Source: a virus
Taxonomy: Duplodnaviria > Heunggongvirae > Uroviricota > Caudoviricetes
Virus record (IMG/VR): IMGVR_UViG_2671180433_000007
DNA: 4,772 nt
Direction: 5' to 3' (one strand)
Both the position numbers and the translations under genes were made by a program. Under the pieces are notes generated by a model. The model saw only the letters and a program-made list of their open reading frames with translations, was not told the origin of the DNA and did no database searches. Below, piece after piece: positions 1 to 4,772 of the stretch. Each line of letters starts with the position of its first letter. Positions within the stretch are counted from its first letter, which is position 1.

Positions 1-150
1 GCTTTCTACTGGCGGTTTGTGGAAATGGGGACCGTGAATATGCCACCGCACCCGTTTGTGCGTCCGGCGTTTGATGTGCGCAGTGAACAGGCAGCTCAGG
101 TGGCGATTGCGCGGATGAACCGGGCCATTGATGAGGTACTGAGACGATGA
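1..150 (+). CDS. 3-prime end of an upstream phage tail/neck gene (possibly HK97 gp10-like family), 5-prime truncated by window edge
   Basis: Frame 1 is open from position 1 to TGA at 148-150 and translates to AFYWRFVEMGTVNMPPHPFVRPAFDVRSEQAAQVAIARMNRAIDEVLRR. The stop overlaps the next start (ATGA at 147-150). Family assignment rests on position in the tail operon and recall of motifs, not a search. Confidence 0.6.
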   Translation, partial: AFYWRFVEMGTVNMPPHPFVRPAFDVRSEQAAQVAIARMNRAIDEVLRR

Positions 151-491
151 CGGAGGCGGATTTGTATCCTCATCTGGCGCATCTTGCCGGCGGGCAGGTG
201 TACCCGTATGTGGTCCCCCTGCTGGATGGCAGGCCGTCGGTGGCGCTTCCGTGGGTGGTTTTCAGCCTGATTTCATCGGTGTCAGCGGACGTGATGGGCG
301 GGCAGGCGGAGTCCTCAGTGTCGGTGCAGATCGACGTTTATGCCGGGACAGTGACGCAGGCGCGTCAGATACGTCAGGACGCCCGTGAAGCCATAATGCT
401 GCTGGCCCCGGGATCCGTCAGTGAAATGCAGGACTATATTCCGGAAAACCGCTGTTACCGTGCAACCCTGGAGTTTCAGGTCACGGTGTGA
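147..491 (+). CDS. tail completion / tail terminator-like protein (114 aa), functional analogue of the gene immediately upstream of the major tail gene in lambdoid phages
   Basis: Complete ORF in the track (MTEADLYPHLAHLAGG...EFQVTV). ATG overlaps the upstream stop (ATGA), indicating translational coupling. It sits directly upstream of the major tail gene and is of typical size. Function is inferred from synteny. Confidence 0.8.
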   Translation: MTEADLYPHLAHLAGGQVYPYVVPLLDGRPSVALPWVVFSLISSVSADVMGGQAESSVSVQIDVYAGTVTQARQIRQDAREAIMLLAPGSVSEMQDYIPENRCYRATLEFQVTV

Positions 492-519
492 CTTTTTCTT
501 TTTTTCTACAAAACCCATA

Positions 520-541
520 CCCCGCCGCGTGCGGGTTTTTT
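520..541 (+). terminator. putative intrinsic terminator / RNA hairpin between tail completion gene and major tail gene
   Basis: GC stem CCCGC (521-525) pairs with GCGGG (531-535) around loop CGCGT, followed by T-tract 536-541. The major tail RBS AGGAGG (548-553) and ATG 558 lie just downstream. Confidence 0.5.
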
Positions 542-557
542 ATTATCAGGAGGCAGA

Positions 558-1274
558 ATGTCTGCTTTGTATGAACGCTCACAGCTGACGCAGGTGATGA
601 TTTCATCTGCCCCGGCGACTGCTGAAACTATGGATAAGGCGGAATATCTGCGCCTGGACTGCACCATCAAGGAAGTGCAGTTCACCGCCGGGCAGAAACA
701 GGATATTGATGTGACCACGCTCTGCTCCACAGAGCAGGAGAACATCAACGGTCTGGGGGCGTCGTCCGAGATTTCCATGTCGGGTAATTTTTATCTGAAT
801 CAGGCCCAGAACGCCCTGCGTGATGCCTATGACAATGACACGGTGTATGCGTTTAAGGTGCAGTTTCCGTCCGGTAAGGGCTTTAAGTTCCTGGCGGAAG
901 TGCGTCAGCACACCTGGTCATCCGGTACCAACGGCGTGGTGGCTGCAACGTTCTCACTTCGCCTGAAGGGTAAACCGGTGTCCTATGTGGTACCGCTGGC
1001 GTTTGTGAAAAATCCGGAGAAGACACTTACCGTGAATACCGGTGCGCTGCTGACAATGTCAGTCAGTGTCAACGGGGGAACGCCGCCTTATAAACACGCC
1101 TGGAAGAAGGATGGTCAGCCGGTAGAGGGACAGACTACTGACACTTTCAGTAAAGCCAATGCGCAGTCAGGTGATAAGGGGGCTTATACCTGCGAGGTAA
1201 CGGATTCTGCAGAACAGCCGCAGAGCATTACCTCTGATGCGTGTACAGTAACGGTTAATGGTGCGGGCGGATAA
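558..1274 (+). CDS. major tail (tube) protein, lambda gpV-like N-terminal domain plus C-terminal Ig-like domain
   Basis: 238-aa ORF preceded by AGGAGG at 548-553. The segment DTVYAFKVQFPSGKGFKFLAEVRQHTWSSG resembles the lambda gpV core motif (AYKIRFPNG...). The C-terminal ~80 aa carry Ig-like hallmarks (W in KHAWKKDG; Y-x-C in GAYTCEVTD). Confidence 0.9.
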   Translation: MSALYERSQLTQVMISSAPATAETMDKAEYLRLDCTIKEVQFTAGQKQDIDVTTLCSTEQENINGLGASSEISMSGNFYLNQAQNALRDAYDNDTVYAFKVQFPSGKGFKFLAEVRQHTWSSGTNGVVAATFSLRLKGKPVSYVVPLAFVKNPEKTLTVNTGALLTMSVSVNGGTPPYKHAWKKDGQPVEGQTTDTFSKANAQSGDKGAYTCEVTDSAEQPQSITSDACTVTVNGAGG

Positions 1275-1279
1275 GGCTT

Positions 1280-1654
1280 ATGGCAAAAGATCTGAAAACA
1301 CTGGCGCTGGCCAGACTGTCGGGGTTCCGTCATAAAACGGTGAAGGTGCCGGAATGGGGAAATGTCAGCGTGGTGCTGCGGGAGCCTTCGGCAGAGGCCT
1401 GGTATCTGTGGCAGGAAGTGCTCAATGGTGATGGAGAGGATGACGATACCCTGTCGGTGGTGGCGAAAACCCGCCGTAACCTGGAAGCGGATGTGACGCT
1501 GTTCTGCGATGTCCTGTGTGATACGGATCTGCAGCGGGTGTTCACTCCGGACGACCGTGAGCAGGTGCTGGCCGTCTATGGTCCGGTACATGCCCGGTTG
1601 CTGCGTCAGGCACTGGAACTGATCGCTGATGCAGAGTCGGCCAGAAAAAAGTAG
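1280..1654 (+). CDS. tail assembly chaperone (lambda gpG functional analogue)
   Basis: 124-aa acidic ORF immediately after the major tail gene. It ends ...ESARKK with the slippery heptamer A_AAA_AAG at 1645-1651 directly before its TAG stop (1652-1654). This is the conserved G/GT arrangement between major tail and tape measure genes. Confidence 0.88.
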   Translation: MAKDLKTLALARLSGFRHKTVKVPEWGNVSVVLREPSAEAWYLWQEVLNGDGEDDDTLSVVAKTRRNLEADVTLFCDVLCDTDLQRVFTPDDREQVLAVYGPVHARLLRQALELIADAESARKK

Positions 1655-1959
1655 CCCGCCCGGAAATTCGCTTTCTGATGCGACTTGCACTCCGTCTGGG
1701 GCGCACCTTATCCGAACTGGGCCACAGTCTGAGTGCGAGCGAGGCGATGATGTGGATGGAGTTCGACAGGGTGTCTCCGCTGGGCGATGAGCGCGGGGAT
1801 ATCCGTAATGCGCAGATCGTGAAAGCGGTTTTCGGGGCGCAGGGGATGAATGTTGCACTGGAGGACGCCATGCTCTGCTGGGGCGAGGATGAGGACAAGC
1901 CGGAGGTGGATCCGTTTGCGGCGCTGGAAGACGCGCTGAGCCTTGCAGCAATGTCATAA
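1280..1959 (+). CDS. tail assembly chaperone G-T fusion made by -1 frameshift at 1645-1651 (predicted ~226 aa)
   Basis: Predicted junction peptide is ...ESARKK-VARPEIRFL-MRLALRLGRTLSEL... The -1 frame is open from the slip site to TAA at 1957-1959. The T segment (track ORF 1678-1959) has no convincing RBS of its own. Confidence 0.7.
1645..1651 (+). promoter_or_regulatory. -1 programmed ribosomal frameshift slippery heptamer A_AAA_AAG
   Basis: Zero-frame codons are AAA (1646-1648) and AAG (1649-1651). A -1 slip puts ribosomes into the frame that is open through the T ORF to the stop at 1957-1959. G is in frame 2 and T in frame 1, i.e. exactly -1. Confidence 0.75.
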
Positions 1960-1968
1960 ATAATGATG

Positions 1969-1994
1969 AAAACCTGCTGTGGCAGGTTTTTTTT
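1969..1994 (+). terminator. putative intrinsic terminator between T segment and tape measure gene
   Basis: Stem AAAACCTGC (1969-1977) pairs with GCAGGTTTT (1982-1990) around loop TGTG (1978-1981), followed by a run of 8 T (1987-1994). RBS GGAG (1999-2002) and ATG 2011 follow. Confidence 0.6.
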
Positions 1995-2010
1995 GCCCGG
2001 AGAAAGGTGA

Positions 2011-2808
2011 ATGGCGACGTTACGTGAACTGATTATCAAAATTTCGGCAAATTCGCAGTCATTCCAGTCGGAGATCCAGCGGGCTTCCCGTATGGGCAGT
2101 GAATATTACCGGACCCTGCAGAATGGCGGGCGTCAGGCCGCTGCGGCAGCCCGGGAGCAGCGACGTGCCCTGGCAGAACTGAACAGCCAGTTGACGGAAA
2201 TTCGCGCTTCGGCTGTCGGAATGGCTGGCGCATTTGCCGGTGCCTTTGCCACCGGACACCTGATTTCACTGGCTGATGAGTGGAGTTCCGTGAATGCCCG
2301 TCTGAAACAGGCATCACAGTCATCCGATGAATTTTCGTCATCACAGAAAGTGCTGATGGATATCAGTCAGCGGACAGGTACCGCTTTTTCGGATAATGCG
2401 GCCCTGTTTGCCCGTTCGGCTGCCTCGATGCGTGAATATGGTTACAGTGCTGATGATGTGCTGAAGGTGACGGAGGCCATTTCCACGGGGCTGAAAATCT
2501 CCGGTGCCAGTACGGCTGAGGCGGGTTCGGTGATCACCCAGTTCAGCCAGGCGCTGGCACAGGGTGTGTTGCGCGGTGAGGAATTTAATTCGGTCAATGA
2601 AAGCGGAGACCGGATCATTCGTGCACTGGCTGCGGGTATGGGCGTGGCCCGTAAAGACCTTAAGGCGATGGCGGACGACGGCAAACTGACGGCGGATAAA
2701 GTCGTGCCCGCGTTAATCAACGGGTGTTCACTCCGGACGACCGTGAGCAGGTGCTGGCCGTCTATGGTCCGGTACATGCCCGGTTGCTGCGTCAGGCACT
2801 GGAACTGA
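2011..2808 (+). CDS. truncated duplicate of tape measure protein N-terminus with chimeric out-of-frame tail; probable pseudogene or remnant
   Basis: Start and RBS are identical to the downstream tape measure gene at 3197. The first ~236 codons (to ...KVVPALI, about 2718) match it exactly. At the duplication junction (2720/2721) translation enters the duplicated G segment out of frame, giving 29 unrelated residues (NGCSLRTTVSRCWPSMVRYMPGCCVRHWN) before the stop at 2806-2808. Confidence 0.6.
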   Translation: MATLRELIIKISANSQSFQSEIQRASRMGSEYYRTLQNGGRQAAAAAREQRRALAELNSQLTEIRASAVGMAGAFAGAFATGHLISLADEWSSVNARLKQASQSSDEFSSSQKVLMDISQRTGTAFSDNAALFARSAASMREYGYSADDVLKVTEAISTGLKISGASTAEAGSVITQFSQALAQGVLRGEEFNSVNESGDRIIRALAAGMGVARKDLKAMADDGKLTADKVVPALINGCSLRTTVSRCWPSMVRYMPGCCVRHWN

Positions 2809-2840
2809 TCGCTGATGCAGAGTCGGCCAGAAAAAAGTAG
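2721..2840 (+). pseudogene. start-less duplicate of tail assembly chaperone G C-terminus (last 40 codons) with second slippery site at 2831-2837
   Basis: Frame 3 encodes RVFTPDDREQVLAVYGPVHARLLRQALELIADAESARKK followed by stop, identical to the G C-terminus. That frame has a TAA at 2697-2699 and no ATG between it and the fragment, so there is no evident initiation. Confidence 0.6.
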
Positions 2841-2863
2841 CCCGCCCGGAAATTCGCTTTCTG

Positions 2864-3145
2864 ATGCGACTTGCGCTCCGTCTGGGGCGCACCTTATCCG
2901 AACTGCGGCACAGCCTGAGTGCGAGCGAGGCGATGATGTGGATGGAGTTCGACAGGGTATCCCCGCTGGGTGATGAGCGCGGGGATATCCGTAATGCACA
3001 GATCGTGAAAGCGGTTTTTGGGGCACAGGGGATGAATGTTGCACTGAAGGACGCCATGCTCTGCTGGGGCGAGGATGAGGACAAGCCGGAGGTGGATCCG
3101 TTTGCGGCGCTGGAAGACGCGCTGAGCCTTGCAGCAATGTCATAA
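2864..3145 (+). CDS. orphan second copy of T segment (93-aa ORF); expression doubtful
   Basis: Intact ORF, 91 of 93 residues identical to the T segment at 1678-1959 (G15R, E62K). It lacks an upstream in-frame G to fuse with and has no recognisable RBS. Confidence 0.4.
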   Translation: MRLALRLGRTLSELRHSLSASEAMMWMEFDRVSPLGDERGDIRNAQIVKAVFGAQGMNVALKDAMLCWGEDEDKPEVDPFAALEDALSLAAMS

Positions 3146-3154
3146 ATAATGATG

Positions 3155-3180
3155 AAAACCTGCTGTGGCAGGTTTTTTTT
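3155..3180 (+). terminator. putative intrinsic terminator, duplicate of 1969-1994
   Basis: Identical hairpin plus T-tract at offset 1186; precedes RBS and ATG 3197 of the tape measure gene. Confidence 0.6.
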
Positions 3181-3196
3181 GCCCGGAGAAAGGTGA

Positions 3197-4772
3197 ATGG
3201 CGACGTTACGTGAACTGATTATCAAAATTTCGGCAAATTCGCAGTCATTCCAGTCGGAGATCCAGCGGGCTTCCCGTATGGGCAGTGAATATTACCGGAC
3301 CCTGCAGAATGGCGGGCGTCAGGCCGCTGCGGCAGCCCGGGAGCAGCGACGTGCCCTGGCAGAACTGAACAGCCAGTTGACGGAAATTCGCGCTTCGGCT
3401 GTCGGAATGGCTGGCGCATTTGCCGGTGCCTTTGCCACCGGACACCTGATTTCACTGGCTGATGAGTGGAGTTCCGTGAATGCCCGTCTGAAACAGGCAT
3501 CACAGTCATCCGATGAATTTTCGTCATCACAGAAAGTGCTGATGGATATCAGTCAGCGGACAGGTACCGCTTTTTCGGATAATGCGGCCCTGTTTGCCCG
3601 TTCGGCTGCCTCGATGCGTGAATATGGTTACAGTGCTGATGATGTGCTGAAGGTGACGGAGGCCATTTCCACGGGGCTGAAAATCTCCGGTGCCAGTACG
3701 GCTGAGGCGGGTTCGGTGATCACCCAGTTCAGCCAGGCGCTGGCACAGGGTGTGTTGCGCGGTGAGGAATTTAATTCGGTCAATGAAAGCGGAGACCGGA
3801 TCATTCGTGCACTGGCTGCGGGTATGGGCGTGGCCCGTAAAGACCTTAAGGCGATGGCGGACGACGGCAAACTGACGGCGGATAAAGTCGTTCCTGCGTT
3901 AATCAGCCAGCTGGGGACATTGCGTGATGAATATGCCGCCATGCCGGAAACGGTTTCCAGTAGTATCACGAAGGTGGAAAACGCCTTTATGGCCTGGGTG
4001 GGCGGTGCGAATGAGGCCAGCGGGGTGACGAAAACGCTCTCCGGTGCGCTGAACGGTGTTGCCGGCAATATTGATAATGTGGCCGCGGCAGCAGGTGTGC
4101 TGGTTGCTGTCGGGGTTGCACGCTACTTTGGCAATATGGCCTCCGGAGCGATGTCTGCCACGGCAGGACTTGTGACGGCTGCACGTAATGAAGTTGCACT
4201 GGCGGAAGCACAGTTCAGGGGAACGCAGATTGCCACGGCGCGGGCAAGGGCAGCCGTGTACCGTGCTCAGCAGGCCGTGGCGGCAGCCCGCGGGACGGAG
4301 ATGCAGATTGCAGCAGAGGCCCGTCTGGCGGCCACACAGGAACGCCTGAACAGAAATATTGCTGCCAGAACCGCCGCCCAGAATGCGCTGAACAGTACAA
4401 CGGCGGTGGGCTCACGTCTGATGAGCGGTGCGCTGGGACTGGTTGGAGGCGTACCCGGACTGGTGATGCTGGGAGCTGCCGCATGGTACACGCTGTACCA
4501 GAATCAGGAACAGGCCAGGGAGTCTGCGCGCCAGTATGCACTGACGATAGATGAAATCGCGCATAAAACGCCATCAATGTCTCTGCCTGAAGCCTCAGAT
4601 AACGAAGGGCGAACACGGGAGGCGCTGACAGAGCAAAACCGGCTGATTGATGAGCAGGCCAGCCGGGTGAAATCCCTGCAGGAAAAAATCGCCGGGTATC
4701 AGTATGTGCTGGCGAACCCGGGCTGGACGACCGGTGACGGATTCATGATAAACCATCTGACCTCGGTGAAGA
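3197..4772 (+). CDS. tail tape measure protein, 3-prime partial (runs off window end)
   Basis: ATG 3197 is preceded by GGAG. Codon-by-codon reading shows frame 2 open to position 4772 (over 525 codons). The product is Ala/Gln/Arg-rich with long helical segments and two hydrophobic stretches, typical of tape measure proteins, and sits directly after G/GT. Confidence 0.9.
   Translation, partial: MATLRELIIKISANSQSFQSEIQRASRMGSEYYRTLQNGGRQAAAAAREQRRALAELNSQLTEIRASAVGMAGAFAGAFATGHLISLADEWSSVNARLKQASQSSDEFSSSQKVLMDISQRTGTAFSDNAALFARSAASMREYGYSADDVLKVTEAISTGLKISGASTAEAGSVITQFSQALAQGVLRGEEFNSVNESGDRIIRALAAGMGVARKDLKAMADDGKLTADKVVPALISQLGTLRDEYAAMPETVSSSITKVENAFMAWVGGANEASGVTKTLSGALNGVAGNIDNVAAAAGVLVAVGVARYFGNMASGAMSATAGLVTAARNEVALAEAQFRGTQIATARARAAVYRAQQAVAAARGTEMQIAAEARLAATQERLNRNIAARTAAQNALNSTTAVGSRLMSGALGLVGGVPGLVMLGAAAWYTLYQNQEQARESARQYALTIDEIAHKTPSMSLPEASDNEGRTREALTEQNRLIDEQASRVKSLQEKIAGYQYVLANPGWTTGDGFMINHLTSVK

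Follow-up and report, generated by a model that had tools for sequence, protein, structure and literature searches.

We find that the apparent 1186-bp tandem duplication in this window (the whole stretch of DNA analysed here, 4,772 nt) is very probably an artefact of assembly, belonging to the class known as 'duplicated overlapping contigs', and that the real locus is most likely an ordinary single-copy module of tail completion protein, major tail protein, G/G-T and tape measure. An N at the junction between the two copies, allelic differences between those copies, and colinearity with single-copy relatives once the overlap is merged are all observed directly. A genuine duplication would be marked by a sequenced novel junction, or by the same junction in independent genomes or assemblies; neither was found in the records examined.

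The window is the entire 4772-bp draft-assembly contig CYBE01000142.1 (NCBI GCA_001286205.1; locus label L012). In a whole-contig comparison, the two sequences have a sole mismatch: at position 2720 the public record has N, whereas the window has A. This N is the only one in CYBE01000142.1 and lies 1 base off the repeat boundary; for an N placed at random, the chance of landing within 1 base of that boundary is about 3/4772. The equivalent position is G in 21 of the 21 aligned natural loci with sequence there, so the A at 2720 fits no allele. Because 2720 is N in the public record, the head-to-tail junction has not been sequenced, and the N further suggests that reads spanning the junction were absent. 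NCBI counts a lone N as an ambiguous base rather than a gap, which is why the join persists inside one deposited 'contig'. The features of the window, with X and Y denoting the two members of the join, are as follows.

1–2719, + strand: contig X, left member of the join, comprising all sequence left of the N, from the 3′ end of an HK97-gp10-like gene to tape measure nt 709
147–491, + strand: tail completion protein (gp17 family), by PF11367 on the L012 gene, with concordant RefSeq annotation of homologous loci
558–1274, + strand: major tail subunit with C-terminal Ig-like domain, by weak Ig family matches and the annotation of homologues
1280–1654, + strand: tail assembly chaperone G, by PF06222 (Phage_TAC_1) and the L001 annotation 'phage tail assembly chaperone'
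1535–2719, + strand: overlap, first representation (1185 bp, in X), with the L005/L010/L011-type T allele at 11 sites and G/C at 2706/2709
1644–1650, + strand: slippery heptamer A AAA AAG, putative site of −1 frameshifting for G-T, read off the sequence within the G/T overlap
1678–1959, + strand: T (the T part of G-T), X allele, by PF06223
1969–1990 and again 3155–3176, + strand: hairpin AAAACCTGC-TGTG-GCAGGTTTT with a T run after it, downstream of T and ahead of the tape measure gene
2011–2808, + strand: very probably artefactual ORF of 236 real tape measure codons, a placeholder codon and 28 out-of-frame G codons, crossing the N at 2720
2720–2720, no strand: placeholder (scaffold or gap), N in CYBE01000142.1 and A in the window
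2721–3905, + strand: overlap, second representation (1185 bp, in Y), with the commonest T allele and T/T at the equivalents of 2706/2709
2721–4772, + strand: contig Y, right member of the join, comprising all sequence right of the N, starting at G nt 256, spanning T and ending within the tape measure gene, which the contig end cuts off
2864–3145, + strand: T again, Y allele, by PF06223; a second representation rather than a second gene
3197–4772, + strand: tape measure protein gene, first 1576 nt, by PF20155 (TMP_3) and PF06120, running off the contig end

The repeat itself is not in question. Ungapped self-comparison at an offset of 1186 gave an identity of about 0.25, the chance level, outside the repeat and of about 1.0 over 1535–2721, far above chance, and repeat finding on the window returned the same 1186-bp spacing. 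Tandem Repeats Finder, whose longest period of 500 is below the 1186-bp unit, reported nothing on the window. The self-comparison thus bore out the geometry given in the preliminary description of this DNA: a unit of 1186 bp (1 mod 3), present at 1535–2720 and 2721–3906 with 98.8% identity. The copies have 14 mismatches. Eleven of these cluster at 1689–1861, in gene T, and the others are at 2706, 2709 and 2720; the 844 bp from 1862 to 2705 hold none. This layout of two patches of mismatches separated by 844 identical bp is unlike the mutational decay of a duplication.

Leaving out the N position, 2720, the copies differ at 13 called positions, and in alignments all 13 differences proved to be alleles already present in natural single-copy loci of related E. 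coli lambdoid prophages. At the 11 T sites, copy 1 equals seven of these loci (L005, L006, L008, L010, L011, L013 and L014) and copy 2 equals two others (L003 and L021). At 2706/2709, natural loci carry either G/C, as in copy 1, or T/T, as in copy 2 and in L002, L003 and L024. In copy 2, the T allele matches the commonest one at 100% identity, and 1125 E. coli records reach at least 99%; the complete genome 2014C-3050 carries both T allele classes, in separate prophages. The copy differences are therefore older prophage alleles rather than new mutations. The preliminary description had offered three possibilities, namely a recent event, ongoing selection or an assembly artefact, of which the third is the reading preferred here.

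Removing either copy leaves 3586 bp, and these are colinear throughout with the 19 loci fetched that span the module. A span of approximately 3585 bp matches the de-duplicated module in 1242 complete E. coli genomes and 92 phage records, and all phage and genome matches span this length. Over its whole length, the de-duplicated window is 97–98% identical to prophages of O103, O111, O157 and O26 strains and, likewise, to Stx1a-, Stx2a- and Stx2c-converting phages; related genomes hold as many as 7 such modules apiece. With 2641–2800 as a query against 5426 complete E. coli genomes, 0 of 3806 matching places covered at least 80%, and the junction was not found; nor did the exact 28-nt junction occur in genome, viral or metagenome contigs, although this result is uninformative, as the query had A where the record has N. 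The chimeric 265-aa product of ORF 2011–2808 has no record in the collection, and neither an identical record nor a doubled segment was present in the E. coli genome and phage collections searched. The comparison with related tail modules proposed in the preliminary description thus yields a colinear module once it is de-duplicated, and the junction in 0 of 5426 complete E. coli genomes.

The genes are those of an ordinary lambdoid tail module, and without the artefactual copy nothing else about them is unusual. The ORFs listed in the preliminary description all exist (G at 1280–1654, T at 1678–1959, the fusion at 2011–2808, the second T at 2864–3145 and the tape measure from 3197), and domains, annotation and sequence agree with its assignment of G, the G-T frameshift site, T, the hairpin and the tape measure N-terminus. 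The domain order PF06222, PF06223, PF20155/PF06120 corresponds to a TAC gene, a −1-frame Phage_tail_T and a tape measure directly downstream. The −1 frame stays open across 1630–1959, T included, and from the sequence, −1 frameshifting at 1644–1650 would be predicted to yield G-T. A further 21 contigs encode the exact protein of the X allele of T, and every one of the matches listed lies in a single-copy module; the exact protein of the major tail subunit is present in 5340 blocks of the collection. The hairpin occurs in two allele classes, its stem preserved via compensatory changes, and complete homologous tape measure genes are 3243 nt long.

The most probable course of events would be the following. 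The source strain was presumably an E. coli with, we infer, at least two near-identical lambdoid prophages, and its short-read assembly would have yielded many contigs, of which the window is contig 142. Both X and Y would have been built from the multi-copy tail module, each covering the interval from G nt 256 to tape measure nt 709. A point against this course is that de Bruijn assemblers normally output each node once, and a repeat-resolution or gap-extension step has to be assumed to give two contigs 844 identical bases in common. A scaffolding or gap-filling step would then have put X ahead of Y; a short perfect end overlap would have gone undetected, a lone N would have been inserted and the 1185-bp overlap left unmerged. 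SSPACE may write a single 'n' for an overlap that is predicted but undetected. Runs of N arise from read-pair joins, and both SSPACE and GapFiller are greedy and capable of false joins (Page et al. 2016, PMC5320598). Finally, the N would have become A during preparation of the window, by which the join mimics a sequenced junction.

The preliminary description, to which the N was invisible because the window displays A at 2720, took the repeat for a physical tandem duplication with functional-looking outer genes around an inner set of remnants. The copies are linked only by the N, and we consider it very unlikely that one prophage truly carries the 1186-bp unit in tandem and that the N marks no more than a poorly supported base call where the copies meet. 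Such a duplication would have arisen by illegitimate recombination between tape measure nt 709–711 and G nt 256, perhaps between co-resident lambdoid prophages, and the prophage would then encode an extra truncated N-terminal fragment of the tape measure and an orphan T. Bacterial chromosomes are known to undergo tandem duplication, and the boundary sequence is compatible with a microhomology junction: CAGC stands at the breakpoint in both parental contexts, a possible 4-bp microhomology, with CA before the N in both and the C after it fitting both. Different natural alleles on the two copies could also be obtained by exchange between two prophages. However, the record's only N lies 1 base from the repeat boundary, and with G in both parents there is no reason for an ambiguous call at a real junction. 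Short-read (de Bruijn) assemblers tend to collapse real 1.2-kb tandem repeats, not to expand them, the junction occurs in no other genome or phage record searched, and X by itself follows a natural haplotype without a break up to its final base (99.49% identical to the single-copy haplotype L005 over all 2719 nt). Two elaborations were also set aside: patchy gene conversion from co-resident prophages after a real duplication, considered for the clustered alleles, was dropped in view of the N at the junction, and a 'CAAC' junction as a mutated form of the CAGC microhomology was rejected because its A is the substituted N.

Least probable of all, in our estimation, is that X and Y come from different prophages or chromosomal sites, with the N standing for a gap of possibly very large size. 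The part of Y right of the repeat (3906–4772) is nearest to haplotype L024, at 98.7%, whereas X matches the L005 type; the copies differ at prophage-allelic sites, and as many as 7 such modules occur in a related genome. Against this, both copies share 6 differences from L005 within the 844 identical bp, which suggests that a common pool of reads fed both X and Y, with incomplete separation by prophage. A join of this type would in any case be a variant of the artefact explanation with the same outcome, that there is no tandem duplication.

With overlapping contigs left unmerged as the preferred reading, the repeat has no biological significance, the locus being an ordinary lambdoid tail module, and its value is as a caution. 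Scaffold joins across a lone N in deposited 'contigs' can mimic recent tandem duplications, gene fragments and chimeric ORFs, and substitution of a real base for the N during window preparation erases the only clue to such joins. Scans for recent duplications should flag repeats with a boundary at an N in the source record, as well as repeats in short contigs of multi-copy prophage sequence.

Compared with known systems, the window resembles the lambda gpG/gpGT/gpH region in its order of major tail protein, TAC_1 chaperone, Phage_tail_T and tape measure, and likewise has a slippery heptamer near the end of gene G and a T open in the −1 frame; the heptamer itself is A AAA AAG, versus G GGA AAG in lambda. 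Its de-duplicated module is like those of the Stx-converting and the Sakai-type lambdoid prophages found in enterohaemorrhagic E. coli, in which the segment that is doubled in the window is single. The closest parallel to the doubling itself is in the duplicated overlapping contigs, set adjacent via mate links, described by Kelley and Salzberg (2010, Genome Biol 11:R28, PMC2864568; for false duplication from adjacent overlapping contigs, see also Ko et al. 2022, PMC9516828). In those cases, as in the window, similar but non-identical contig ends lie adjacent across a placeholder and mimic a recent tandem or segmental duplication, the copy differences are allelic, and merging regains a normal locus. 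The published cases involve two haplotypes of a diploid genome, whereas the window most likely involves a paralogous multi-copy prophage module in a haploid bacterium, and, unlike in the published cases, the gap here is a single N and the join hence lies within one deposited 'contig'.

The claimed 1186-bp repeat is present in the window as supplied: self-comparison at an offset of 1186 gave almost complete identity over 1535–2721 and chance-level identity elsewhere, and a repeat search returned the same spacing. The two head-to-tail copies differ at 14 positions within the unit (98.8% identity), 11 of which are packed into a 173-bp patch at 1689–1861; none falls in the 844 bp from 1862 to 2705, and the remaining three lie at the extreme end of the unit, at 2706, 2709 and 2720. 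The unit is 1 mod 3 in length. The preliminary description had read 1535–3906 as a tandem duplication with an outer functional-looking gene set and an inner remnant set, and the open reading frames that it listed were all recovered, those of the inner set being:

2011–2808, truncated tape measure ORF, which would comprise 237 tape measure codons and then an out-of-frame fusion to the 3′ part of the tail assembly chaperone gene G
2721–2840, G fragment
2864–3145, orphan T, the tail assembly protein T gene

The source record, ncbi:GCA_001286205.1:CYBE01000142.1, came up when the T protein of copy 1 was looked up; it is 4772 bp long and the locus covers 1–4772 of it, and the window is therefore the entirety of a small contig from a fragmented draft assembly. 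Our literature search found no mention of the assembly's accession. Compared base by base, record and window differ only at 2720, where the public record has N and the window A; this N is the sole one in the record. Preparation of the window had swapped the ambiguous base for A, hiding the scaffold join. Position 2720 is the penultimate base of copy 1; A there breaks an otherwise shared CAGC, and 21 of 21 natural loci with sequence at the equivalent position carry G. Because 2720 is N in the source, the head-to-tail junction was never sequenced, and the N is a placeholder between a left member, X (1–2719), and a right member, Y (2721–4772), whose ends overlap by 1185 bases. Over its whole length X is 99.49% identical to the natural single-copy haplotype L005, one of the related prophage loci fetched for comparison; to the right of the overlap, the nearest haplotype to Y is another one, L024 (98.7%).

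The underlying biology of the locus is ordinary and already known. The window is 97–98% identical to the tail module of E. coli lambdoid prophages, a kind that includes Stx-converting phages, and at least 80% of it is covered in 1242 complete genomes and 92 phage records. In every match listed, the span on the record was about 3585 bases, in two pieces, one repeat unit short of the full window. Once either copy is deleted, the remaining 3586 bp are colinear from end to end with the 19 fetched loci spanning the module. In RefSeq, one such locus is annotated, in order, as tail completion gp17, major tail subunit, tail assembly chaperone, tail assembly protein T and tape measure protein, and the Pfam families recorded for the genes of the window itself are consistent with this. 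The −1 frame, that of T, is open from 1630, and one further element was read from the sequence:

1644–1650, slippery heptamer A AAA AAG at the end of G

This layout is the classical G/G-T arrangement, with A AAA AAG, which is also the dnaX heptamer, in place of the G GGA AAG of lambda.

Among complete E. coli genomes, 0 of 3806 matching places cover at least 80% of the junction-crossing interval 2641–2800, and a chimeric protein across the junction is not on record. A junction 28-mer had no match in three collections, a result that is uninformative because the pattern carried the substituted A.

We aligned 23 related loci with the window in both of its de-duplicated forms. At all 11 clustered T sites, copy 1 has the allele of L005, L006, L008, L010, L011, L013 and L014, and copy 2 has the commonest T allele, 100% identical in many genomes; natural loci differ at 2706 and 2709 too, some having G/C and others T/T. 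A single complete genome holds both T allele classes, in different prophages. The copies therefore represent two variants that a multi-copy element already had, identical over the intervening 844 bp, and their differences are not the outcome of mutation. Duplication followed by mutational decay was rejected, the differences being natural alleles in patches with 844 identical bp between them.

T and the tape measure gene are separated by a hairpin, AAAACCTGC-TGTG-GCAGGTTTT, with a T run after it (1969–1990, and again at 3155–3176). Across 24 related loci its stem is kept by compensatory changes in two allele classes, CCTGC/GCAGG versus ACCGC/GCGGT, which suggests a conserved terminator-like or regulatory element inside the late operon. 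Two further terminator-like hairpins with T runs, at 478–494 and 521–535, lie between the tail completion and major tail genes, the window as a whole having no more such sites than shuffled sequence. Upstream of the module, the portal gene is annotated as frameshifted (pseudogene) in four of four prophage copies taken from complete genomes, and other gene calls divide it into a portal ORF of 454 aa and a second ORF without a family match. Because the frameshift is so consistent, it may reflect a programmed frameshift or a fused gene and not decay. In the window, as in many other loci, the major tail subunit (238 aa) is intact. The annotated defects are:

L001 2440–5024, portal gene, frameshifted
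L002 1–1345, portal gene, frameshifted
L003 1–1346, portal gene, frameshifted
L004 1–1024, portal gene, frameshifted
L001 6558–7273, major tail subunit, frameshifted
L002 2880–3596, major tail subunit, with internal stop

The repeat is very probably a scaffolding or gap-filling artefact and not a real feature, masked in the window by the N-to-A substitution. Assembly artefact was one option named at the outset, and the N at the junction together with the natural alleles in the copies favours it. Contigs X and Y would have been set adjacent across one placeholder, and the variants between the copies would represent paralogous prophages and not the two haplotypes of a diploid. That the duplication is real and the N at its junction a poor base call is highly unlikely: the record's only N would have to lie within one base of the boundary by coincidence (a chance of about 3/4772) and also at a base shared by both parental sequences, and real 1.2-kb tandem repeats tend to be collapsed, not expanded, by short-read assemblers. 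We give still less credence to a wrong linkage of X and Y, one from each of two prophages located apart on the chromosome, an account that ends in the same conclusion, namely that there is no tandem duplication. With no real duplication, the questions of RecA instability, selection and tail length effects do not arise, and the supposed inner remnants are either the same genes represented a second time or readings across the N placeholder.

Known assembly behaviour offers parallels for an artefactual join. SSPACE writes a single 'n' where an overlap is predicted but undetected. A widely used bacterial pipeline of the same period made read-pair joins with runs of N and then attempted to fill them; its authors describe its tools as greedy, with false joins possible (PMC5320598). 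The present case is very probably the 'duplicated overlapping contigs' error, in which two contigs with similar, non-identical ends are set adjacent through mate links, giving the illusion of a recent duplication (Kelley and Salzberg, PMC2864568). It differs in that the variants here would be those of paralogous prophages.
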